Shown here piece after piece: positions 1 to 61,522 of a DNA stretch of 64,000 nt (the first letter of the stretch is position 1; each line of letters opens with the position of its first letter). Under the pieces are notes generated by a model, which was given only the letters and a program-made list of their open reading frames with translations, was not told the DNA's origin and searched no databases. The DNA is from Alphaproteobacteria bacterium (lineage in GTDB: Bacteria; Pseudomonadota; Alphaproteobacteria; Rs-D84): contig JAFZXK010000019.1 in NCBI GenBank assembly GCA_017616785.1, forward strand, positions 5,321-69,320, written 5' to 3'. A program made the translations under genes and the position numbers.

Positions 1-99
1 CCCAGAACTTGTAACAACAAGTCCGGATTGCGTGTTTATGATGATTGATGTGAACCTGCGTGTGGCAGAAGGAACTTTGGAAAACCTGCCCTTTATGGT

Positions 100-225
100 C
101 TAGTGTTTTTTCAACACTTCTTGCGACAACATATTTACCAAACCGACAAATTCATCGGCGGTGATTTTGTATTCTGGATTTTTCGCAAAGAATTCCAATA
201 TTGCGGTATATAAAGGTTTCTCCAT
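100..225 (-). CDS. small hypothetical protein, 41 aa (MEKPLYTAILEFFAKNPEYKITADEFVGLVNMLSQEVLKKH)
   Basis: Below the ORF-track length cutoff. ATG at 225-223 is preceded by AAGGAG with a 6-nt spacer. Its stop shares a CTAG with a convergent + strand frame ending at 103. No family recognised. Confidence 0.3.
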   Translation of the reverse strand: MEKPLYTAILEFFAKNPEYKITADEFVGLVNMLSQEVLKKH

Positions 226-485
226 TTTTTGCTCCTTTAATTAGTTTTCGAAAATGTTAAAAGCATTAAAACGGTTGGATGTTCACGACTATTGACATCA
301 GAAAATAGTAGGCCTTATTCATTTATCTATTCGACCTCATCCAACCTTGGCCGGATGTTTTTTGTCATCGCTGACACTGATGTCGAACAATAAGATAGGC
401 CGTGACACCCAATTGGCGAAACACTAATTCATCAACACAGGGATAATATCATAGAAAAAGATTAAAATCAAAAGGAAAAAAATCC

Positions 486-1556
486 TTAGGACAAGAACGC
501 GGTAATCTGGTCTTGCATTTGAAATGTGCCAAGGACGACCCATGCAATCACACCCGATATTAGCAAAATACCAACAGTGTTCAACGCATCGGACAAAGAT
601 TCAATTTTCCGAACAGATTCTTCCAAATACTCGTTTGAAATATGATTAAGGTTTTCATCAAAATCGTTCATATCCGAATACACCGCCAAATCGCCAATCA
701 ATTCTTGGCTTGGAAAATCCAGCCCTGTATTTTGCAATGCATTCCCAAGGTTATCACCGTTCGCAATATGTCGCAAAGTTTTATCCAAAATATTGCGCAG
801 ATATTTATTTGCATTATCGGCAATAACACGCATCGCGTCCGGTATGGAAACGCCCGCGGAAACCATCGCGGCCATTGACATCATCCAACCAACCGAAACA
901 CGAATCTTATAAATATTCCATGGTGGCAACTTATCAAAAAACGCGCGCAACCGCCCCGACCAAGTCGGCAAAGATAACCACGAAAAAACTATAACTAAAC
1001 AAAAAACGAACGCGATAAATTTCCAATACTTTCCCGCCCATTCCGATAGCCAAATCAAAGACGCCGCACCACCGGTCCAAACCATACCTTCACCGGCAAC
1101 CTCGGCCAACGGCGGCACAAGGTAAATTCCAACCATAATGATAATGCCGAACACCAAAACCAACAATAATAACGGATACGCAATTGCGCCGAACACCGCA
1201 CGACCGATGCGTTTATTTGCAACAACAATTCGACCAACATTTTCAAGTGCGACAATCAAACTTGACATATTACTGGATGTAAGCAGTAATGTTTCTTCGG
1301 TTGGAATCCAACCACGCGTGGCCTCGGAAAAACTAAGCCCGCGTTCAAGATTCATTTCCCATTCGCGCAAACATATTGCAAAAGGTTCGTTCGGCCGCGC
1401 CCCACCGTGGGATTCCGTCATTTGCAAACGATTCAACGCATTCACCAATGTAAAATCGTTTTTAAGCAACGACACCAATTTGCGCCAAATCGCAATACGC
1501 TTGTCGGTGCTAAACCGACAAACCATTTTTGCATAAAAAATTTCAACACTTGTCAT
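486..1556 (-). CDS. type II secretion/type IV pilus platform protein, GspF/PilC family (PilR-like of IncI/PAPI-1 type IVb pili)
   Basis: 356 aa polytopic protein with GspF-type layout (cytoplasmic helical domains alternating with TM segments). Lies directly downstream (3-nt gap) of a GspE/PilB-type ATPase. Confidence 0.7.
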   Translation of the reverse strand: MTSVEIFYAKMVCRFSTDKRIAIWRKLVSLLKNDFTLVNALNRLQMTESHGGARPNEPFAICLREWEMNLERGLSFSEATRGWIPTEETLLLTSSNMSSLIVALENVGRIVVANKRIGRAVFGAIAYPLLLLVLVFGIIIMVGIYLVPPLAEVAGEGMVWTGGAASLIWLSEWAGKYWKFIAFVFCLVIVFSWLSLPTWSGRLRAFFDKLPPWNIYKIRVSVGWMMSMAAMVSAGVSIPDAMRVIADNANKYLRNILDKTLRHIANGDNLGNALQNTGLDFPSQELIGDLAVYSDMNDFDENLNHISNEYLEESVRKIESLSDALNTVGILLISGVIAWVVLGTFQMQDQITAFLS

Positions 1557-1558
1557 TT

Positions 1559-3181
1559 TTAGTAAACCCCCGGTCTATCCAGCAACCCAACCCAACGTTC
1601 CAATTCATCAACACCAATTATACCCTGTAACATCAACGAACACGCAGATTCTTTTAATGTGCGACCGTCCATTTCTTCCAACCAATACTTTACCGCTTCG
1701 TCGGTTTGTCCGGCAAGTGCCAATTGCAAGAAATCACTGTTCGTTATAATTATTTCTCCCGCCTTGATACGCCCCATTGTTCCGGTTCCGTTACAGTGTT
1801 CACATCCCGGACCACGAACATAAACTTGATTTAAACCCAAATCGCCAAAGGCATCAACCACGCGACCATATTCTGAATATTCTGGGTGATTTATCAACCG
1901 TTCACGACAATACGGACAAAGCCGTTTGAACAAACGCATAGAAATAAGTCCGCGCATCATTGTTTCTTCTTTTAACTTAAACGATTCGACCCCCATATCC
2001 AACAATCGTACCAAAGCCGCCATCGCAGAATTCGCGTGCAAAGTTGTCCAAACATTATGCCCTGAAAGCGCACCTTTGACCGTCAATTGTGCCGCGGCCA
2101 AAGTTCGAATTTCACCAACCATCAATGTATCAGGGTCACTGCGCAATGCGGCCGCCAACGCTTCGGTATATTCGTTTTCGCGTTGTTCTTCGTTAACAGT
2201 ATTCACAACCGGAATTTGGTGCGCACCAAAGATTTTTTGTTCAACCGGGTCTTCAACAGTAATAAGGTTTATTTCGTAATGATGTTCTTTTAACATCAAC
2301 ACCATATTGCGAACAAGTGTCGTTGATTTACCGGAACTGGTTGGACCCGCAACAACAACCAGACCTGTTGGAAACGAACGCAACCGATGCAAAAGTTTCT
2401 GTTCATATTTTCCAAATTCTTGTTCGGTTGTAATACTTTGCGACGGGTTGTCATAAAGCAATCGCATAACAACATATCGCGACCCGAACGCAACCGGATT
2501 GAATTGCATACGAATACTAAGCACACCTTCGGGCAAATATAAATCCTTTGTCCCACGCAGCGGCGTCCGACCATCTTTTTGTGCGGATTGATATTCGTTT
2601 TGTGCATAGTTTGAATTTGAAATATCCGCCGACGCGAACGCGGCACGAACAAAAGATTCGCCCCACCCCGAATTAAATTCTAAAACGGGTTGCATACTGC
2701 CATCTATACGAAAATAAATTGTTGTTTGGTCTGCAACCTCTATATGAATATCAGAAACTTTTTGGGCGGCGGCCTTAGCAACTATATCGATAAAATCTTT
2801 CTGCATTTGATTGTTGTAATCGACACGCGACCGCGACCCACCAAGTTTACTTTCATAATGTTTATATACCGCCGAAAGCAAACCTAAATCAGAATAAAAC
2901 GGCGACAACATAGCGCGATTTTTCTTTCGCAATAAATCAAGGAACGCAAGCACCCGCCCATCATACCGATGTGTCCGCGAAATAATCAAACCGCCATTTG
3001 AAAAATACGCTAATAAACCCTGGGTTTCTTTTGGTAATTCAAATTCACCACCACTTGCGGTTAGTAATTTATTATTTTCAGAAAAAAGATATTCCACAAT
3101 TTCATCCGCGTCCGCCCGTTCCATGCCAACGGGCACAGTTGGTCTTTTATCAAAAGAAATATCTTCTGAAAAATCTTTCAT
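1559..3181 (-). CDS. GspE/PilB-family secretion ATPase (PilQ-like ATPase of type IVb pili)
   Basis: Walker A GPTSSGKSTT, Asp/His box region (LMVGEIR, HNVWTTLH), and tetracysteine motif CPYC...CEHC typical of GspE/PilB ATPases. Confidence 0.85.
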   Translation of the reverse strand: MKDFSEDISFDKRPTVPVGMERADADEIVEYLFSENNKLLTASGGEFELPKETQGLLAYFSNGGLIISRTHRYDGRVLAFLDLLRKKNRAMLSPFYSDLGLLSAVYKHYESKLGGSRSRVDYNNQMQKDFIDIVAKAAAQKVSDIHIEVADQTTIYFRIDGSMQPVLEFNSGWGESFVRAAFASADISNSNYAQNEYQSAQKDGRTPLRGTKDLYLPEGVLSIRMQFNPVAFGSRYVVMRLLYDNPSQSITTEQEFGKYEQKLLHRLRSFPTGLVVVAGPTSSGKSTTLVRNMVLMLKEHHYEINLITVEDPVEQKIFGAHQIPVVNTVNEEQRENEYTEALAAALRSDPDTLMVGEIRTLAAAQLTVKGALSGHNVWTTLHANSAMAALVRLLDMGVESFKLKEETMMRGLISMRLFKRLCPYCRERLINHPEYSEYGRVVDAFGDLGLNQVYVRGPGCEHCNGTGTMGRIKAGEIIITNSDFLQLALAGQTDEAVKYWLEEMDGRTLKESACSLMLQGIIGVDELERWVGLLDRPGVY

Positions 3182-3183
3182 TT

Positions 3184-3861
3184 TTAATTACCATTTGCAA
3201 CATTCAGTGTTTGAATTTCACCGTCCTTTGAAAACACAACACCTTCGTCCAAAGATATAGATTTAACCGTATATCCATCCAAATCTTTACCAACACTCAA
3301 CTTTTTATTTTGACCATTAGCCAGGTCTTGAACGGTTGCCTGCAACTGCGAACCGGCACCATATACATTTAACAATTTATATTTTTTTGTTATTTCGGTT
3401 TCCGCCTTTGGTTGCGGTTGTTCGCTGTATACGGGTTGCGCCGGCGCATACGATGGCGTTGGCGTTGCGACGCGGGCCGTCAATGCCTCGCGTTCATTTT
3501 CCAAACGCTTTGCTTCATTTTGCAAACGCGCACGTTCTGTTTCAAATTCTTGCTGTTGCTGTTCTGCGCGGCCGGACAAAGTATCAATTTCCATATGCAA
3601 CTTTATTTTTTCCGCCGCCAATCTATCCAAATCAAGATTTAACTGCGCGCGTTCTTTTTCCAATTGCATTAAAACTTTTTCTTGTTCCAAATCCGTGATT
3701 TGTTGAAAAAGTGAACCGTTTACATCGTATTGTTCTATTGCATCTGCGGAAAATTGTTCATTTGCCGCATCATCAACATCAACAACAACATCAACCGCAT
3801 AAGACACCGATGTTACTCCAAACACAAACGCACATAATAAAAGTTTAATTTTGTTTTGCAT
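3184..3861 (-). CDS. PilP-like type IVb pilus biogenesis protein (signal peptide, long coiled coil, C-terminal beta domain)
   Basis: N-terminal signal sequence MQNKIKLLLCAFVFGVTSVSYA and Q/E/R/L-rich coiled coil. The C-terminal segment YKLLNVYGAGSQLQATVQDL...GYTVKSISLDEGVVF resembles PilP-family domains. Position between the PilO-like gene and the ATPase matches the pilO-P-Q-R order. Confidence 0.5.
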   Translation of the reverse strand: MQNKIKLLLCAFVFGVTSVSYAVDVVVDVDDAANEQFSADAIEQYDVNGSLFQQITDLEQEKVLMQLEKERAQLNLDLDRLAAEKIKLHMEIDTLSGRAEQQQQEFETERARLQNEAKRLENEREALTARVATPTPSYAPAQPVYSEQPQPKAETEITKKYKLLNVYGAGSQLQATVQDLANGQNKKLSVGKDLDGYTVKSISLDEGVVFSKDGEIQTLNVANGN

Positions 3862-5210: not shown

Positions 5211-5232
5211 AAAAACGGGCGCAACCGCGCCC
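5211..5232 (-). terminator. rho-independent terminator after the 143-aa lipoprotein gene
   Basis: GGGCGC-aacc-GCGCCC hairpin followed, on the minus strand, by a T-run (aaaaa on +). Confidence 0.65.
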
Positions 5233-5233
5233 G

Positions 5234-5265
5234 CACTAACACCAATCACTAACCACTTACACTTA
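5234..5265 (-). repeat. degenerate heptad array (CCACTAA-type on + strand) containing the stop codon of the lipoprotein gene
   Basis: cactaacaccaatcactaaccacttacactta. The stop codon (5263-5265) is the last unit of the array. Confidence 0.75.
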
Positions 5266-10790: not shown

Positions 10791-10821
10791 ACTTACACTT
10801 ACCACTACCACTAACCACTAA
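10791..10821 (-). repeat. degenerate heptad array (CCACTAA-type on + strand), not attached to a gene end
   Basis: acttacacttaccactaccactaaccactaa. Confidence 0.7.
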
Positions 10822-10863
10822 AATATGATATAATTACCGCATATGAAAAATATGGGGGGACAA

Positions 10864-13128: not shown

Positions 13129-13160
13129 CCACTAACCACTAACACTACCACTTTCTACTA
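13129..13160 (-). repeat. degenerate heptad array (CCACTAA-type on + strand) beginning at the ychF stop codon
   Basis: ccactaaccactaacactaccactttctacta. The sense strand reads TAG TAG AAA GTG GTA GTG TTA GTG GTT AGT GG. Confidence 0.8.
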
Positions 13161-28638: not shown

Positions 28639-30945
28639 ATGAAATGGACATTTGATTGGCTAAAAGATTATTTGAAAACGACGCTTTCTGCGGCGGAAAT
28701 TGCGGACCGGTTGACACAAATCGGATTAGAGGTCGAAGATTTATCGGCACCCCTGCCCCCGATTGCGGCAAAAATTGTCGAATGCAAACCCCATGAAAAC
28801 AGCGACCACCTGCATGTTCTTATGGTTGACGACGGTTCGGAAAATTTGCGTCAGGTTGTATGCGGTGCGCCAAATGTTCGCGTTGGTATGATATCTGCGC
28901 TGGCACGCCCGGGCTGTGTGATACAGGGGCACGAAATTCAAAGTGGAAAATTGCGTGGCGTTGTTTCCGACGGCATGATGTGCAGTGGGGAAGAACTTGG
29001 TGTAAATGACGATGATACGGGAATTATCGAATTACCAAGTAAAACAAAAATTGGTTCACCGGTCGTTGATTGTCCAACGGTCTTTGACGCGGGTATAACG
29101 CCGAATCGTCCGGATTATTTGGCGGTGCGCGGTGTTGCACGTGACCTTTCGGCGGCCGGTGCCGGCGAATATATTGAACCAAAAGATGATGCGTTTGCGG
29201 TGTCGGGCAATGCGCGCAAAGTAAACATTAAAACAGATAAATGTCGCGCATATAAACTTGCGGAAATTCACAATATAAAAATGGCACAAAGTAATTCAAC
29301 CGTGGCATCACGTTTGCGCGCAATCGGAATAAACCCAAAGAATGCGCCAATCGACGCAACAAATTATATCTGCTATGACATGGCGCAACCAATGCACTGC
29401 TTTGACGCGGACGAAATTCATGGCGATATAACGGTGCGCTTGGCGAACGATTGCGAAGAATTTACCGACCTGTTTGGAAACAAGCACGAATTGAAAAATA
29501 CAGACATAGTCATTACTGATGAAGATGGTGTTCTTGCGCTTGCCGGGGTTGTTGGTGGTGCGCGCGGTTGTACACATGATAAAACCAAAAATATAATTTT
29601 GGAAAGCGCATACTTTGACCCGGTCTGTGTTCGCAAAACATCAAAACGGCTATCGATATCGACCGACGCGTCGTATCGTTATGAACGTGGCATTGACCCA
29701 ACAATAACGGGCCCCGCATTAATGTGCGCGGTAAAGATTATTACCGATGTATGTGGTGGCACGGTTGCGGGATTTTCTGCGGCGGGAACGGATACGCCGA
29801 CCAATACCACTATTGAATTTACGCCTGATATTTTTGTTAAGAAAACTGGTATAGAAATGCCGGCCGCGGAAATGGAAAAAATATTAAAGAAACTTGGCTA
29901 TACGGGGAATTTTGGCGGAAAAAAGTGGAAAATTACGGCGCCAAGTTCACGCACTGATGTTCATATTCCGGAAACGGTGGTTGCGGATTTAATTCGTATC
30001 TATGGGTATGATAAAATCGCCCAAAACGATACGCACACAACGGGCGACGCGGTGCGCAGTGATAATTTTGATTTGCTGACCAAGAAAAAACTTGCGGCAC
30101 GGGGCCTTAACGAATGCCGTTCGTATGGTTTTGGAAATTCCAGAACAGAAGAAATTCTTTCCAATAAACCGTCTGTATACGTTGCAAATCCTATCATAGC
30201 GGACTTTGATACGGCGCGAAATTCGTTGCTCGGCATTTTGCTAAATGCTGTTTCGGAAAATGAAAAACGCGGGTATCCCGATTTGAATTTGTTCGAAATG
30301 GGAACGGTGTTCGATGGCGATAATCCGAACGAACAGCATACCGAAATCTGTATTGTTCGCACCGGTGTAACATCACCAAAACATTGGCAAAAGCGCAATC
30401 GGCCGGTTGATATATATGATGTAAAGGCGGATATTGTTTCGCTTTTGAACGGTCAAAACTTTACGATTGAAACTGATAACCCGCCACTTTGGGCACACCC
30501 GTACCGTTATGGTTGCATTATGCAGGGCAAAAAGAAACTCGGTGAATTCGGTGAACTGCACCCGATGGTCGCAAAAAAATTGAAAATCAAAACAAACGTG
30601 GTTATTGGTATTATAGATAATATCGATAACTTGCCGCGACGGGCTTTGCCACGCGGGCCGATTTCGATGGGTGAATTCCAACCGATAACGCGCGACTTTG
30701 CGTTTATTGTGCCGTCCGATTTCCCGGCGGAAAAATTGGTTGCGGCGGCGCGTTATGCGACAAACCCGGTATCACGTGTGGTTGTGTTTGATTCGTTTGA
30801 AATGCCGGACGGCAAAAAGTCCGTTGCATTCACGGTTACATTTACCCCACGTGAAAAAATGTCGGAAAGCGATTTAGCCAAACTGCACAGCGACATAATT
30901 GCGGCGGTCGAAAAGAAATGTCCCGCACATGTTCGCGATAAGTGA
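28639..30945 (+). CDS. pheT: phenylalanine--tRNA ligase beta subunit
   Basis: MKWTFDWLKDYL start, tRNA-binding and B3/4/B5 domains. 768 aa, following pheS. Confidence 0.93.
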   Translation: MKWTFDWLKDYLKTTLSAAEIADRLTQIGLEVEDLSAPLPPIAAKIVECKPHENSDHLHVLMVDDGSENLRQVVCGAPNVRVGMISALARPGCVIQGHEIQSGKLRGVVSDGMMCSGEELGVNDDDTGIIELPSKTKIGSPVVDCPTVFDAGITPNRPDYLAVRGVARDLSAAGAGEYIEPKDDAFAVSGNARKVNIKTDKCRAYKLAEIHNIKMAQSNSTVASRLRAIGINPKNAPIDATNYICYDMAQPMHCFDADEIHGDITVRLANDCEEFTDLFGNKHELKNTDIVITDEDGVLALAGVVGGARGCTHDKTKNIILESAYFDPVCVRKTSKRLSISTDASYRYERGIDPTITGPALMCAVKIITDVCGGTVAGFSAAGTDTPTNTTIEFTPDIFVKKTGIEMPAAEMEKILKKLGYTGNFGGKKWKITAPSSRTDVHIPETVVADLIRIYGYDKIAQNDTHTTGDAVRSDNFDLLTKKKLAARGLNECRSYGFGNSRTEEILSNKPSVYVANPIIADFDTARNSLLGILLNAVSENEKRGYPDLNLFEMGTVFDGDNPNEQHTEICIVRTGVTSPKHWQKRNRPVDIYDVKADIVSLLNGQNFTIETDNPPLWAHPYRYGCIMQGKKKLGEFGELHPMVAKKLKIKTNVVIGIIDNIDNLPRRALPRGPISMGEFQPITRDFAFIVPSDFPAEKLVAAARYATNPVSRVVVFDSFEMPDGKKSVAFTVTFTPREKMSESDLAKLHSDIIAAVEKKCPAHVRDK

Positions 30946-30994
30946 TCCCCTTCGCTGGCGAAGGGGTCCGGCGGAACCGCCGGGGGTAGTGGCG
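30945..30994 (+). repeat. GC-rich double-hairpin palindromic element (copy abutting the pheT stop)
   Basis: atccccttcgctggcgaaggggtccggcggaaccgccgggggtagtggcg. Near-identical to 36323-36374. Confidence 0.85.
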
Positions 30995-31049
30995 CGATGA
31001 TACTTTGAATCATCGTTTTTCCCGGCATTTTTGAACATTTTTATCATTT

Positions 31050-31073
31050 CGGCCGGCATTGCCGGCCTTTTTA
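31050..31073 (+). terminator. rho-independent terminator downstream of pheT
   Basis: ggccggc-att-gccggcc followed by ttttt. Confidence 0.7.
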
Positions 31074-31195
31074 TGCAAAATTTACAAAAAAGCCGGCTTT
31101 TTTGTTGCAAATTCCATTTTTTATGAAAAAATCATTTTTTTGTTGCAACTTCTACCACGTTTTTTAGTATGATACAAACAAAGAAGGAGTATAAA

Positions 31196-31717: not shown

Positions 31718-31793
31718 GCCGGTGTAGCTCAGTTGGTAGAGCATCTCATTCGTAATGAGGGGGTCGTAGGTTCAAGTCCTATCACCGGCACCA
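31718..31793 (+). tRNA. tRNA-Thr (CGU)
   Basis: GCCGGTGTAGCTCAGTTGGTAGAGC..., anticodon loop TTCGTAA, T-loop GGTTCAAGTCC, CCA encoded. Confidence 0.93.
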
Positions 31794-31799
31794 CAAAAT

Positions 31800-31844
31800 T
31801 TTGTTAGCCCATGCAAAAAAGCGTGGGCTTAAAAAATTTTAGTG
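31800..31844 (+). repeat. 44-45 bp direct repeat, copy 1 (contains hairpin agcccaYgc-aaaaaa-gcgtgggct)
   Basis: tttgttagcccatgcaaaaaagcgtgggcttaaaaaattttagtg. The second copy is at 31949-31992. Confidence 0.85.
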
Positions 31845-31948: not shown

Positions 31949-31992
31949 TTTGTTAGCCCACGCAAAAAAGCGTGGGCTTAAAAAATTTAGTG
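31949..31992 (+). repeat. 44-45 bp direct repeat, copy 2
   Basis: tttgttagcccacgcaaaaaagcgtgggcttaaaaaatttagtg. One substitution and one 1-nt indel relative to copy 1. Confidence 0.85.
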
Positions 31993-36037: not shown

Positions 36038-36715
36038 ATGATAACGCCGCGGGATTTTTTCGAAATTGTTCCGAAAAATCTGAATATGGAAATTCGTTCG
36101 GAATTGTATTCGACGAACGAATTTACCTTTGCGGTTGCGGTAATACTTTCGGCCCAGGCGACCGATAAAAAAGTGAACGAAGTTACACCCGCCCTATTCC
36201 GCGTTGCGCCGACACCACAAAAAATGTTGGAACTTGGAATCGACGGGCTAAAAAAATATATTCGTGTTATTTCTTTTTTCAATAACAAGGCAAAAAATAT
36301 AATCGCACTTTCAGAAAAGTTAATCCCCTTCGCTGGCGAAGGGGTGCCGGGCGGCGCCCGGCGGGGTAGTGGCGATTGGAAATTCCCGCAAAAATATCAC
36401 AATCGTGCGGAACTTGTAAAATTACCGGGCATCGGGCAAAAGACAGCAAATGTTATAACAAATGTTTTGTGGAATGCACCGAACATTGGTGTTGATACAC
36501 ATGTGTTTCGGCTTTCGCATCGGTACGGTTGGGTAACGGACGGCGCGAACACACCCGAAAAGGTCGAAAAGGAATTGTTGAAAAAAATTCCAAAAAAATA
36601 TCATGCAATAACAAATCACGTGATGGTCTTGTTCGGTCGATATACCTGCACGGCACTGCGCCCGAAATGTGAAAATTGCCCACTTTCCAAAATTTGCGAT
36701 TTTTATAAAGGATGA
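36038..36715 (+). CDS. nth: endonuclease III, carrying an in-frame repeat insertion
   Basis: LSAQATD, HhH LPGIGQKTANV, VDTHVFR, and 4Fe-4S cluster CTALRPKCENCPLSKIC. Confidence 0.9.
   Translation: MITPRDFFEIVPKNLNMEIRSELYSTNEFTFAVAVILSAQATDKKVNEVTPALFRVAPTPQKMLELGIDGLKKYIRVISFFNNKAKNIIALSEKLIPFAGEGVPGGARRGSGDWKFPQKYHNRAELVKLPGIGQKTANVITNVLWNAPNIGVDTHVFRLSHRYGWVTDGANTPEKVEKELLKKIPKKYHAITNHVMVLFGRYTCTALRPKCENCPLSKICDFYKG
36323..36374 (+). repeat. GC-rich double-hairpin palindromic element inserted in-frame in nth
   Basis: atccccttcgctggcgaaggggtgccgggcggcgcccggcggggtagtggcg, translated as IPFAGEGVPGGARRGSG. Paralogous to 30945-30994. Confidence 0.85.
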
Positions 36716-46040: not shown

Positions 46041-47606
<1,566 letters not shown>

Positions 47607-59047: not shown

Positions 59048-59620
59048 ATGAATAGTAAAGAAAAATTTGCACTTTATGCTGAAATTTTGCGCGATTGGTC
59101 GCGGCGGATGAATCTTGTGGCGCCAAGCACGCTAAATGACCTTGAAAACCGACACTTTGCGGATTCCGCGCAATTGGCGGATGTTTTGCCACACGATGTT
59201 GATATTATTGATTTGGGATCGGGTGCGGGCTTTCCGGGTGTTGTTTTGGCAATTTTGGGTTGGAACGTAACCTGTATCGAATCGATTGGCAAAAAAGTTT
59301 CTTTTCTAAATGAATTAAAAGAAAAACTTGAACTTTCGAATTTAACAATTTATCACGGACGTGTTGAAAACTTTTTCCCGGCTTTTTTGAATAAAAATAT
59401 TAAAAAAGCCGGGAAATTTGTTATAACCGCACGCGCTTTTGCACCACTTGTGAAGATTTTGGACTATGTTCGCGGAATAAATTGCCGGCTTTTTTTGCTA
59501 AAAGGCCGGGAGATTGAACGCGAAATTGCTGACGCGAAAAAGAAATATCGGTTTGATTACGAACTTGTTCCATCAAAAACCGGCGATGGATTTATAATAA
59601 TTGCGCGATTCGGTCGGTAA
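59048..59620 (+). CDS. rsmG: 16S rRNA (guanine527-N7)-methyltransferase RsmG (GidB)
   Basis: SAM motif DLGSGAGFPGVVLAI. Conserved position before parAB. Confidence 0.88.
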   Translation: MNSKEKFALYAEILRDWSRRMNLVAPSTLNDLENRHFADSAQLADVLPHDVDIIDLGSGAGFPGVVLAILGWNVTCIESIGKKVSFLNELKEKLELSNLTIYHGRVENFFPAFLNKNIKKAGKFVITARAFAPLVKILDYVRGINCRLFLLKGREIEREIADAKKKYRFDYELVPSKTGDGFIIIARFGR

Positions 59621-60574: not shown

Positions 60575-61459
60575 ATGGGAAAATTTGGCCTTGGACGGAA
60601 TTTGATGGATTTACAAAGTGAAATGGGCAACGTGCCGGAAATATCGATTCTTAGTGGTACCGAACGCGTCGTCGTTCGCCAAATACCAATTGCGCAAATC
60701 GGCGTGAATCCGGACCAGCCGCGCAAAACCTTTACACCCGAAGATTTGGCAGATTTGGCGGCGTCTATAAAAGAGAAGGGCATACTACAACCAATTTTGC
60801 TGCGCTCGGTGAAAAATCGGCCATATTTGTATGAAATTGTGGCGGGTGAACGGCGTTATCGCGCAAGTAAAATGGCGGGACTGGCGGAAATTCCGGCGTT
60901 GGTAAAGAATTTGGCGGACAATAACGCCATGGAAATTGCGCTAATTGAAAATGTGCAACGCGAAAACCTGAACCCGATAGAGGAGGCCGCGGCGTATGTA
61001 AATCTGATGAATAAGTGCGAATACAGCATGGCGGATGTGTCGCATTTAATTGGAAAATCCGAAAGTTACATCCGGAATTTGGTGCGTTTGAATGGGTTGC
61101 CCGCGTCGGTCAAGAAAATGGTAGAGCAGGGCGCACTTTCCGCATCGCACGCGCGTGCAATTACCGTTGCCGAAGATCCGGAAAAAATGGCGCGTGAAAT
61201 TATCGCGCAAAAGTTATCGGTCGCGGACACCGAAAAACGTATGAAAAACGCGGCGCGTTCCGACAAAAACCGCAAATTTACAAACAAAACTATGGACGCA
61301 AAGACCGTCAAAGAATTGACGCAAAGGGCAGGGCGCGCATTATCCGCCACGGTTAAAATTACCGAACGTCGTGGTGGCGCGGGTGTGATAACAATTTCAT
61401 TTAACTCACGCCCCCAGTTGAACGAAATAATAGATAAAATTGCCGGCCGAATCGCATAA
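60575..61459 (+). CDS. parB: chromosome partitioning protein ParB/Spo0J
   Basis: NPDQPRK, GERRYRASKMAG (ParB box), and HTH region. Confidence 0.92.
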   Translation: MGKFGLGRNLMDLQSEMGNVPEISILSGTERVVVRQIPIAQIGVNPDQPRKTFTPEDLADLAASIKEKGILQPILLRSVKNRPYLYEIVAGERRYRASKMAGLAEIPALVKNLADNNAMEIALIENVQRENLNPIEEAAAYVNLMNKCEYSMADVSHLIGKSESYIRNLVRLNGLPASVKKMVEQGALSASHARAITVAEDPEKMAREIIAQKLSVADTEKRMKNAARSDKNRKFTNKTMDAKTVKELTQRAGRALSATVKITERRGGAGVITISFNSRPQLNEIIDKIAGRIA

Positions 61460-61490
61460 AATTATCAAAAAAGCCGGGAAAGTTGACAAA

Positions 61491-61522
61491 AGTGGTCAGT
61501 GTTAGTGGATAGTGGTTAGTAA
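61491..61522 (+). repeat. degenerate heptad array (TTAGTGG-type on + strand) about 30 nt downstream of the parB stop
   Basis: agtggtcagtgttagtggatagtggttagtaa. Confidence 0.75.

Follow-up and report, generated by a model that had tools for sequence, protein, structure and literature searches.

The window analysed here, a stretch of 64,000 nucleotides (64 kb), comes from an uncultured gut alphaproteobacterium and encodes an endonuclease III (nth) that carries a short GC-rich element in frame, and a second copy of this element lies in the non-coding DNA at the 3' end of pheT (Table 1). In the nth copy (copy 1) a 5' ATC leads into a first hairpin, which is followed by a T linker, a second hairpin and the tail GGGGTAGTGGCG. 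The preliminary description of this DNA had placed a two-hairpin element in frame within an intact nth, and its location, its folding and the open reading frame all bear this out. It had also called the pheT copy (copy 2) near-identical, which holds for hairpin 1 (23 nt) and for the tail (12 nt), both identical between the two copies, but not for hairpin 2, which reads CCGGCGG-aa-CCGCCGG in copy 2 against GCCGGGC-ggc-GCCCGGC in copy 1 and is palindromic in both; the ungapped identity of the two copies is 79%. The window has exactly two occurrences of the 23-mer ATCCCCTTCGCTGGCGAAGGGGT, where 100 shuffles lead one to expect none, and both copies fold as DNA into two adjacent hairpins (-18.3 and -16.3 kcal/mol, z -2.5 to -3.5). 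Relaxed searches of the whole 64 kb recovered no copy beyond these two. Copy 2 begins on the A with which the pheT stop codon TGA (30943-30945) ends. Copy 2 is missing from the syntenic locus L001, whose pheT has the Pfam domains tRNA_bind, B3_4, B5, tRNA_synthFbeta and FDX-ACB, and in the alignment the empty site, AAGTAA joined directly to AGTCGACG, is unlike the element ends. The terminator-like hairpin that directly follows copy 2 may have come in with it, since the alignment shows this hairpin to be likewise missing from L001.

Table 1. Genes, element copies and their parts in the window (positions counted from its first nucleotide).
Feature	Position	Strand	Basis
pheT, 768 aa	28639..30945	+	ORF; alignment to syntenic L001 gene
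Element copy 2, non-coding, pheT 3' region	30945..30994	+	Sequence, fold
Terminator-like hairpin directly after copy 2, CGATGAT-actttga-ATCATCG then TTTTT	30995..31020	+	Sequence
nth (endonuclease III), 225 aa + stop	36038..36715	+	ORF list, Pfam, PDB phmmer
Element copy 1, in frame in nth, conceptual translation IPFAGEGVPGGARRGSG	36323..36374	+	Sequence
Hairpin 1 of copy 1, 8 bp, CCCCTTCG / CGAAGGGG, loop CTGG	36325..36344	+	DNA fold
Hairpin 2 of copy 1, 7 bp, GCCGGGC / GCCCGGC, loop GGC	36346..36362	+	Fold
Tail GGGGTAGT-GGCG with GTAG tag, in-frame G S G	36363..36374	+	Same in both copies

The product of nth is assigned by Pfam to HhH-GPD (9e-24), HHH and EndIII_4Fe-2S, and a PDB phmmer search with it recovers 2abk (2e-42). 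Alignment to 2abk and 1orn shows the residues LPGIGQKTANV, VDTH and CTALRPKCENCPLSKIC, with the catalytic Lys (GQKTAN) and Asp (VDTH) and all four Cys retained, so that the window gene has both the Cys-x6-Cys-x2-Cys-x5-Cys cluster and the HhH-GPD fold of this enzyme. Comparisons among insert-bearing nth alleles give dN/dS values of 0.04-0.12 at dS of 0.9-2.5; nth is under purifying selection despite the insert. An AF2 model of moderate quality (pLDDT 73, 42 close sequences as input) matches the EndoIII fold at a Foldseek TM of 0.64-0.70 and renders insert residues ~99-117 as a coil between helix 81-98 and the HhH motif, with pLDDT below 50 at residues 102-110. The insert is therefore predicted, by this model, to form a disordered loop ahead of the HhH motif, the encoded peptide being Gly/Arg/Pro-rich and probably disordered. 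The loop that precedes the HhH motif differs in length among Nth proteins and is a naturally variable surface loop. Judged by its intact reading frame, catalytic residues, dN/dS and modelled fold, the enzyme with its insert looks functional, as the preliminary description had supposed, and the model also agrees with its placement of the insert in a surface loop.

Relative to E. coli Nth (2abk) and Geobacillus EndoIII (1orn) the window protein has ~16-17 extra residues at the insert site, in keeping with the longer linker originally noted against the E. coli enzyme. The alignment of orthologues that had been proposed for delimiting the insertion does so: the segment is missing from many orthologues at 75-90% identity, and the net gain over the closest empty ones is 36 nt, or 12 codons. 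Orthologue DNA was gathered allele by allele; a metagenome scan with the Nth alignment returned mostly Nth genes at 42-50% identity, and peptide patterns were too generic. The alleles L003, L204, L207 and L209 are empty. Conserved ancestral motifs, [YF]DD..W[VK] and IPTNKD.FV, are retained in empty alleles, so that the empty state is the ancestral one, and by sequence comparison the segment in nth is an insertion that is polymorphic across orthologues. Filled and empty alleles are intermixed on the Nth tree, from which the number of independent gains and losses cannot be read because it is a simple NJ reconstruction of ~190 residues. The filled variant of the window recurs in P0001, on independent contigs. 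Among nth alleles the upper stem of hairpin 1 varies through compensatory changes, the hairpin tops being GCTGGC, CACGTCTCGTG and TGGCTTTGCCG with the peptides FAG, FTSR and FGFA, and hairpin 2 together with the tail is 100% identical in L001, L205, L206, L208 and L210 at a near saturation of synonymous sites. Outside a tract of ~150 nt around the insert, L210 and the empty allele L209 share 97-100% identity; within it they share only 44-72%, and the tract of L210 instead matches the filled alleles L001 and L208 at 85-92%; on these identities L210 is an empty-type backbone with an imported tract of ~150 nt. It also holds a tandem 36-nt module (a 72-nt double insert), and the segment FPVVGEGDWK of P0009 looks like a remnant of the insert. 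Two of the empty alleles, L003 and L204 (ATC CCT TGT ...GGT GAT TGG), share the downstream GDWK flank with filled alleles and may conceivably represent the exact target or an excision footprint, but L207 and L209, also empty, have no sequence resembling the element ends.

The preliminary description had envisaged a repeat family occupying both coding and non-coding DNA, and further copies were indeed found in both, across several phyla. One pattern scan yielded more than 119 loci, distributed over Bacteroidota, Alpha-, Beta- and Gammaproteobacteria, Deferribacteraceae and Ignavibacteria, the carriers including gut Alphaproteobacteria incertae sedis and Bacteroidales; Parabacteroides sp. PFB2-10, Caedibacter taeniospiralis 51K, Francisella novicida and Ca. 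Enterousia MAGs are among them. Because the pattern includes the GTAG tag, every locus that it recovered has one, and the tail GGGGTAGT also occurs in nth alleles retrieved through protein homology, independently of the pattern; Francisella has the tail variant GAGGTAGT and Hydrogenophilales the variant GGGGTGGT. Over 46-57 nt the unit forms a double stem-loop comprising hairpin 1 (TTC-CCCTTC...GAAGGGG), a TG linker, hairpin 2 and the tail, and the tag, when read as GTAG, sits 3' of both hairpins. The family alignment and statistics were based on 148 copies with conserved blocks. The base of the hairpin-1 stem, CCCCTTC/GAAGGGG, is the family-wide conserved core, invariant and fully paired (alignment A2). 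Hairpin 2 is hypervariable though always self-complementary, with 99 distinct sequences among the 148 copies, a perfect stem of at least 4 bp in 126 of them and a GNA triloop in 82, the usual loop being cGNAg. Altogether 93.3% of cells are paired, against ~49% when the partners are slid, the covariation score of 0.339 (versus 0.112) was matched in none of 500 shuffles, and both sides have changed in five of the seven hairpin-2 pairs.

Approximately 5% of copies lie inside Pfam-verified genes and the remainder outside. In-frame copies in other Pfam-verified genes were found in priA, mnmE, a Mur ligase gene, a GH2 gene and the gene for a T9SS-sorted protein, and for several copies the distance to a stop codon is -1 to +4 nt. 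Tail-to-tail pairs with spacers of 16-470 nt occur, as do singletons and head-to-head dimers. Copy number is two in 64 kb of the source genome, and the nth copy is the only one in ~60 kb of close relatives; in other genomes, L029 and L050 have 5-6 copies within 1.5-5 kb. Copies show no clear bias in orientation with respect to the gene upstream of them (45 sense, 35 antisense; the accompanying tally of copies within long ORFs, which takes in spurious frames, was set aside), and a strand test by G.T versus A.C mismatches is uninformative because the stems are almost always perfect (11 mismatches, none of them G.T or A.C). Viral contigs gave only 13 hits and thus nothing to suggest phages as the main carriers of the family. 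In Rfam, the window and nine element-rich loci had no family at gathering score, a permissive mode produced chance-level matches only (PyrR, miRNAs, FtrB at 18.9 bits), and FtrB had zero matches in three Francisella-type loci; in F. novicida, FtrB begins beside one of the element copies. No description of the repeat family or of its association with DUF559 genes was found in Rfam or in the literature searched, including that on REPtrons and on Francisella repeats, and within this scope the family appears to be previously undescribed.

That association consists of nine loci at which inverted or flanking element copies surround small DUF559 (Vsr-like) nuclease genes, with full DUF559 genes or fragments abutting the element tail in L029, L050, L113, L052, L074 and L102. 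The enclosed ORFs match PF04480 (DUF559) at E values of 1e-25 to 2e-31; NCBIfam returns 'DUF559 domain-containing protein' only, below cut-off, and PADLOC assigned the enclosed DUF559 genes to no defence system. The nine loci include three DUF559 homologues picked by taxon alone (from Francisella novicida, locus L224, from an alphaproteobacterial MAG and from Hydrogenophilales), all of which were flanked by copies; at one of these three loci it is the heads of the copies, not their tails, that point towards the ORF. In the window no DUF559 gene stands beside either copy and, given this and the low copy number, the family need not be mobile at present in the source lineage. The link as seen in these sequences is one of association only, and DUF559 could be cargo, or its surroundings a preferred landing site.

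The 52-nt segment is, with high probability, a copy of a non-autonomous REP-like miniature repeat that is translated as an extra loop of a functional Nth. Translation as a simple extra loop is the expected outcome because the frame is stop-free and the length is a multiple of three. The insert would spread between related lineages via short homologous-recombination tracts, of which the one mosaic allele, L210, affords a direct view, and would turn over as 36-nt modules are duplicated or lost between the direct repeats (GAAGGGG or GGGGTAGT) that it contains. More speculatively, primary mobility might be driven in trans by a small DUF559 (Vsr-like PD-(D/E)XK) nuclease in a REPtron-like arrangement, the nuclease replacing the RAYT tyrosine transposase, and the perfect stems might be kept by a DNA-level hairpin process (template switching, hairpin repair) rather than by slow compensatory mutation. 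The hairpin 2 shared by nth alleles could in principle be kept by joint coding and structural constraint.

We give practically no credence to the alternative in which the segment belongs to Nth itself, as ancestral or lineage-specific sequence, or arose by misassembly, and resembles the pheT copy by coincidence. These are the two findings that the preliminary description had named as capable of overturning it, and their only point of support is the variable length of the pre-HhH loop; they are refuted by exact agreement with a non-coding copy over 23 nt and 12 nt, unexpected by chance, by the spread of the family over hundreds of independent assemblies, by the same nth variant on other contigs (P0001) and by the existence of empty alleles. 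The size of ~50 nt and the hairpin at the start of the insert recall the coding gap of T4 gene 60 and the GC-rich 'byps' of Magnusiomyces mitochondria. That the insert should stay untranslated through a ribosome bypass of this kind (for a byps-related preprint see 10.1101/2022.08.31.505936), or be removed from the mRNA, is nevertheless very improbable, as a programmed bypass element has an out-of-frame or stop-bearing gap with take-off and landing codons, whereas all of the ~12 filled alleles, the 72-nt double insert included, are divisible by three in length and free of in-frame stops. No stop follows a take-off codon, the one stop-containing frame (G GGG TAG T) is never that used by in-frame copies, and Rfam shows no intron-like or ribozyme match. 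Exaptation, whether through a property newly conferred on Nth by the loop or through an effect of the hairpins in the mRNA (on stability, pausing or regulation), would suit the pairing kept in coding sequence across different hairpin-1 tops that alter the peptide, the identity of hairpin 2 between alleles with saturated dS, and the filling of the nth site in many lineages that otherwise have few copies of the family. We consider it improbable all the same, since many close relatives do without the insert, its peptide is not conserved, the loop is predicted to be disordered, unrelated proteins carry the element too and most of its copies are non-coding, and recent recombinational transfer accounts for the identity across lineages.

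With the segment read as a REP-like repeat copy, two agents of mobility can be weighed. It is possible, though doubtful, that a DUF559 nuclease and not an HUH/RAYT transposase mobilises this cross-phylum, two-hairpin, GTAG-tagged family, which encloses the nuclease gene. Repeated occupation of nth would then represent nuclease-stimulated, homing-like gene conversion, and the perfect yet hypervariable hairpin 2 would arise by hairpin nicking and resynthesis; if true, 'DUF559 cassettes' would rank as selfish elements of a new class, and DUF559, a large domain of unknown function, would gain a role. We think it unlikely that the family is a classical REP moved by RAYT/TnpA-REP (HUH Y1) acting on single-stranded hairpins near GTAG, with DUF559 genes as passengers or favoured neighbours. 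Triloops of the cGNAg type are typical of very stable DNA mini-hairpins and fit a single-stranded DNA substrate. The GTAG hairpin, both types of dimer, the post-stop positions and the copies in repair and replication genes likewise fit GTAG REPs as described (PMC3733652). However, clustering of the ORFs within 400 nt of 146 copies (~0.8 Mb) disclosed no recurrent tyrosine-transposase-like ORF, whereas DUF559 recurred nine times. Absence from such fragments weighs little because RAYT genes are usually single-copy. The tag also lies 3' of the hairpins here and 5' of the hairpin in E. coli REPs, on the strand reading GTAG, although the E. coli polarity may not be that of all 24 GTAG REP families.

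Since in-frame palindromic repeats are known from Rickettsia palindromic elements (RPEs) and from tagged REPs, the behaviour seen in nth is not new in itself. The analysis adds the conservation of repeat blocks over Bacteroidota, several proteobacterial classes, Deferribacteraceae and Ignavibacteria, which is unusual for REP-type repeats and implies horizontal spread or a conserved trans-acting partner. It also adds the reproducible physical link to DUF559, which could explain movement without a RAYT as well as the role of one DUF559 subfamily. The nth allele series (empty, hairpin-1 variants, tandem, remnant, mosaic) displays the spread and turnover of the insert, with reading frame and hairpins both maintained within an essential-looking enzyme. 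In practice, proteins with such inserts look more divergent than they are, which can mislead the annotation and phylogeny of MAG proteins.

Among known systems, bacterial MITEs inside genes (ERIC/RU, Correia, Coxiella QMITEs; PMC2759123, PMC5896051, PMC10969869) are likewise small and non-autonomous and can, where translated in frame, contribute peptides, but they have IS-matching terminal inverted repeats and target-site duplications. The ends of the present element, TTCCCCTTC... and ...GGGGTAGT, are not mutual inverted repeats, no target-site duplication was seen at the filled-versus-empty junctions of pheT or nth, and no IS with ends matching the element was found. Mitochondrial GC clusters, Allomyces DHEs and hairpin elements (PMC4478555, PMC2800124) are GC-rich, mobile-looking one- or two-hairpin modules in AT-richer genomes that sometimes lie in coding or rRNA sequence and diversify while pairing stays; they are organellar, of unrelated sequence and not known to be associated with a DUF559 gene, and they resemble the element in anatomy alone. 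The group I intron homing endonuclease I-Bth0305I is tabulated in the Vsr-like/DUF559 clade (PMC3424549), which places at least one selfish homing nuclease in the clade of the element-enclosed DUF559, although the latter is encoded by a free-standing gene between hairpin repeats and is not intron-borne.

The preliminary description had likened the element to RPEs (Ogata et al., 2000, 2002, cited in PMC3733652), palindromic repeats that are both intergenic and in frame in still-functional genes, where they add surface peptide segments. The parallel in in-frame behaviour stands, the present element lying in frame inside intact conserved genes (nth, PriA, MnmE, Mur ligase, GH2); by description it is set apart by its different sequence and its occurrence in many phyla, and its size of ~50 nt and its hosts argue against membership of RPE-1 to RPE-8. 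RPE-1 measures 100-150 bp and is confined to Rickettsia. Among systems already described, the element is by analogy most closely related to the GTAG-tagged REPs and REPtrons (Di Nocera et al., 2013, PMC3733652; Nunvar 2010, PMC2817692; Ton-Hoang 2012, PMC3333891), and not only to the RPEs. According to PMC3733652, GTAG REPs are short GC-rich stem-loops (units of 20-40 bp) with an unpaired GTAG or GTGG end tag and compensatory stem variation, occurring as singletons and as head-to-head or tail-to-tail dimers just 3' of ORFs, some touching the stop, with a gene enclosed by inverted copies and with intragenic in-frame copies already reported, notably in DNA repair and replication genes. The present element is likewise a palindromic stem-loop with compensatory variation and an unpaired GTAG end, mostly intergenic near ORF 3' ends. 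It differs in having two hairpins (46-57 nt), one a conserved and one a hypervariable module, in sharing blocks across several phyla where REP families are mostly species- or genus-specific, and in enclosing a DUF559 Vsr-like nuclease gene instead of a RAYT gene, none of which was seen near the copies. On the strength of these likenesses we regard the element as a REP/RPE-like selfish repeat whose in-frame behaviour is of a known kind.

Both copies of the element reported in the preliminary description were recovered, one in frame within nth and the other directly after pheT, overlapping its stop codon by one base (see table). The window has exactly two occurrences of the 23-mer ATCCCCTTCGCTGGCGAAGGGGT (0 expected), and relaxed searches of the 64 kb found no third element copy. 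The copies had been called near-identical, which holds for two of three modules, hairpin 1 and the tail GGGGTAGTGGCG being exactly alike, but not for hairpin 2, which differs in sequence between them yet is self-complementary in each. The pheT copy is missing from a syntenic locus in another genome (L001), where the empty junction (AAGTAA followed by AGTCGACG) bears no likeness to the element ends, indicating that the repeated unit takes in TCCCCTT... through ...GGGGTAGTGGCG.

Locations of element copies, their host genes and further repeats (window positions unless a locus is named)
Feature	Location	Strand	Remarks
Element copy 1	36323-36374	+	within nth ORF; read as IPFAGEGVPGGARRGSG
nth ORF	36038-36715	+	intact, 225 codons
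Element copy 2	30945-30994		begins on the A of the pheT TGA stop codon
pheT	28639-30945		TGA stop codon shares its last base with element copy 2
In-gene copy	L039		PriA (Pfam)
In-gene copy	L010		Mur ligase (Pfam)
In-gene copy	L096		GH2 glycosidase (Pfam)
In-gene copy	L099		T9SS-sorted protein (Pfam)
In-gene copy	L057		MnmE (Pfam)
(N)NTAGTG hexa-/heptamer arrays	46042-46089, 13130-13150, 10803-10823, 5240-5263, 41793-41816	-	intergenic; e.g. TATTAGTGGCTAGTGTTAGTGTGAGTGGTTAGTGGGTAGTGGGTAGTG
(N)NTAGTG array outside window	L050:5400-5440		intergenic
AT-rich long hairpins, TTCCCGGC-TTTTT...AAAAA-GCCGGGAA	14497-14556, 31010-31106, 37294-37355, 59366-59422, 61431-61494		intergenic; second repeat family, families D1/D2 and I1-I5
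40-nt hairpin-containing repeat, TTTGTTAGCCCAYGCAAAAAAGCGTGGGCTTAAAAAATTT	31800-31839, 31949-31988		two copies, 98% identical, 149 nt apart

The host ORF encodes endonuclease III, with Pfam HhH-GPD (9e-24), HHH and EndoIII iron-sulfur domains and a match to E. coli Nth 2abk (2e-42). Alignment with the E. coli and Geobacillus enzymes places ~16-17 additional residues after the helix that closes with ...KAKNIIALSEKL and ahead of the HhH motif, bearing out the proposal that the linker is longer than that of E. coli Nth by about the element's length. A search of 5.8 billion protein sequences returned thousands of relatives, the best 120 of which (75-96% identity, uncultured Alphaproteobacteria) have 199-241 aa, mostly 213-241. 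Among 42 of these 120 in an alignment, many close orthologues lack the insert (e.g. LQKIPC-DGDWKFP, LKEIPTNKDNFVFP, LAEYDDNSNWVFP) and others have a related one in the same place (FPFAGEGGDRGTRWGSGDW, VPFGFAEGGDRGTRWGSDTDETQW, VPFTSREGGDRGTRWGSSENW), identifying the segment as an insertion. At the DNA level, both hairpins and the tail are present in filled nth alleles; the empty site has the sequence ...ATC CCT TGT GAT GGT GAT TGG (L003), ...GAA TAT GAT GAT AAC TCA AAT TGG (L207) or ...ATT CCA ACA AAC AAA GAT AAT TTT (L209), and the net gain over the nearest empty alleles is 36 nt.

As far as sequence can tell, filled nth is still functional, as had been proposed: window Nth keeps the catalytic Lys (GQKTAN), the Asp (VDTH) and the Cys-x6-Cys-x2-Cys-x5-Cys cluster, and pairs of insert-bearing alleles have a dN/dS of 0.04-0.12 with dS 0.9-2.5. 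An AlphaFold2 model of moderate quality (mean pLDDT 73, pTM 0.63; TM 0.64-0.70 to EndoIII structures) predicts that insert residues ~99-117 form a coil lying after helix 81-98 and before the HhH motif, with pLDDT <50 at 102-110, consistent with an extra loop. All filled alleles, the double insert included, are in frame and free of stops, which argues for plain translation of the insert over ribosomal bypass. About 5% of copies in the wider family lie within Pfam-confirmed genes, and every in-gene copy is in a stop-free frame, most often ...GAA GGG GTG ... GGT AGT, none using the TAG-containing frame; those verified, a small sample, are all in sense orientation.

In a neighbour-joining protein tree that excludes the insert region, alleles with and without the insert are intermixed in at least 8 sub-clades. 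The empty state is ancestral, since empty alleles have conserved motifs in common; one Nth relative (P0009, FPVVGEGDWK) looks like it holds an insert remnant. Hairpin 2 and tail (GGGGACCGCGGGACGCGGTGGGGTAGT) are 100% identical in filled L001, L205, L206, L208 and L210 despite synonymous sites near saturation, and their hairpin-1 tops vary with compensatory changes (GCTGGC, TGGCTTTGCCG, CACGTCTCGTG, CACTTGTG). L210 is 97-100% identical to empty L209 along the gene except for ~150 nt surrounding the insert, where it has 44-72% identity to L209 and 85-92% to filled L001 and L208. This switch shows entry of the insert into an L209-like gene by a short recombination tract, be it through nuclease-stimulated recombination or ordinary allelic exchange, and recombination would directly explain why diverged alleles have hairpin 2 in common. 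In L210 the modules are arranged in tandem (hairpin 1, hairpin 2a, CGGGGTAGT, TGC GAAGGGG, hairpin 2b, GGGGTAAT), that is, an additional 36-nt module between direct repeats; because the outer stem of hairpin 2a is that of window hairpin 2, the window allele could stem from such a tandem through loss of the second module.

The pattern CCCTTC-N4-14-GAAGGGG-N8-30-GGGGTAGT, scanned against one genome per GTDB species, matches at least 119 stretches (~17 by a rough chance estimate). Listed matches include rumen and gut Bacteroidales, Parabacteroides isolates, Flavobacteriales, Chitinophagales, Ignavibacteria, Deferribacteraceae, Ca. Enterousia, other Alphaproteobacteria, Caedibacter, Francisella, Polaromonas and others; a handful from GC-rich genomes look fortuitous. 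At several loci there are 2-6 copies, on both strands. The family consensus reads aaTTC-CCCTTC-(top)-GAAGGGG-TG-(hairpin 2)-(A)CGGGGTAGT, with a lineage-specific extension after it. No Rfam family matches the element. Across 148 copies there are 99 distinct hairpin-2 sequences, with a perfect stem of ≥4 bp in 126 (mean 4.54 versus 2.65 in shuffles) and a GNA triloop in 82. For 11 distinct copies of the window copy's length class, 93.3% of cells are paired (~49% with partners slid), covariation scores 0.339 (reached by 0/500 shuffles) versus 0.112, and both sides changed in 5/7 hairpin-2 pairs. Since stems very seldom contain mismatches, and never G.T or A.C ones, the arms vary without visible intermediates, and they probably diversify through a process at the DNA level that works on the hairpin. 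At L050:5400-6920, six full copies and several solo hairpin-1 units are densely packed within a longer composite repeat (hairpin 1 - AATTTTTAGTATCTGGAATCGGATTGCAGAGAGTTTAAC - full element), suggesting that some genomes have higher-order repeat units.

When ORFs lying up to 400 nt from a copy were clustered, the sole recurrent small family was PF04480 DUF559 (E 1e-25 to 2e-31), a Vsr-like PD-(D/E)XK nuclease domain, and no transposase recurred. Two copies bracket a full DUF559 gene in L050 and L113 (tails pointing inward) and in L029, and fragments adjoin the tail in L052, L074 and L102; ~0.5 Mb of control Nth loci contain one DUF559 gene, which has no neighbouring element. As an independent test, three DUF559 homologues were chosen for taxonomic spread only from 2456 relatives found by protein search, and the element flanks all three. 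The Francisella novicida ORF (L224) lies within an inverted copy pair, starting 8 nt after one tail and ending inside the other copy; an alphaproteobacterial MAG has copies on both sides, heads toward the ORF; and Hydrogenophilales have the same layout with a variant (CCCCTCC...GGAGGGG, tail GGGGTGGT), the DUF559 gene sitting between hsdS and the remainder of a type I restriction-modification operon. One variant copy lies within hsdS (L228:753-791, ORF 68-1486; same position in L229-L235), and a tandem pair overlaps the 3' end of that gene. The L224 gene (locus 1-3408) has an MmeI-type restriction-modification gene on one side and a KAP-family NTPase gene on the other, a defence-island-like context. 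NCBIfam and PADLOC gave only generic or sub-threshold matches for element-flanked DUF559 proteins, and our literature search found no paper linking DUF559 with a repeat family. The Vsr/DUF559 clade contains a known homing endonuclease (table in PMC3424549).

Other repeats were also observed. The array at 5211-5263 and that in L050 run directly into a GC hairpin and T-run (AACGGGCGCAATCGCGCCCGTTTTT), and the array unit GGGTAGTG is similar to the element tail GGGGTAGTGG. The AT-rich long hairpins look like bidirectional terminators, and the 40-nt repeat pair lies just downstream of a tRNA gene (31718-31790). A Francisella tularensis LVS ftrB deletion primer (PMC3091763) ends in GGCTTGCGAAGCAATACGGGGTAGTG, hairpin 2 and tail of the element family, directly adjoining the deleted segment of this sRNA gene, and the FtrB probe has GGTAGTC followed by a cGTAg hairpin. 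Because both carry element-type sequence, FtrB may be transcribed from, or processed at, an element copy or decayed cassette; the Rfam FtrB model had no match in the Francisella-type loci examined.

The element is not a MITE, as it has neither terminal inverted repeats nor a target duplication. Assignment to the GTAG-REP super-family is plausible, but the fit is imperfect, because the element has two hairpins, a tag on the 3' side, blocks conserved across phyla, and DUF559 instead of a RAYT (REP-associated tyrosine transposase) as its associated gene. Enclosure of a gene by repeats resembles the REPtron, a RAYT gene between REPs (PMC3733652, PMC3333891), with a nuclease replacing the tyrosine transposase. 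Likeness to mitochondrial GC clusters and double-hairpin elements is anatomical only. Neither the family nor its cross-phylum spread, modular anatomy or DUF559 association appears to have been described. The RPE-like behaviour first suggested is supported by an in-frame repeat in an intact gene, an established kind of event: the element acts as do RPEs read in frame in Rickettsia genes (cited in PMC3733652) and the GTAG-tagged REPs of Di Nocera et al. (same source), which are reported to have intragenic copies in repair and replication genes too, and is a REP/RPE-like selfish repeat that Nth tolerates in a surface loop.
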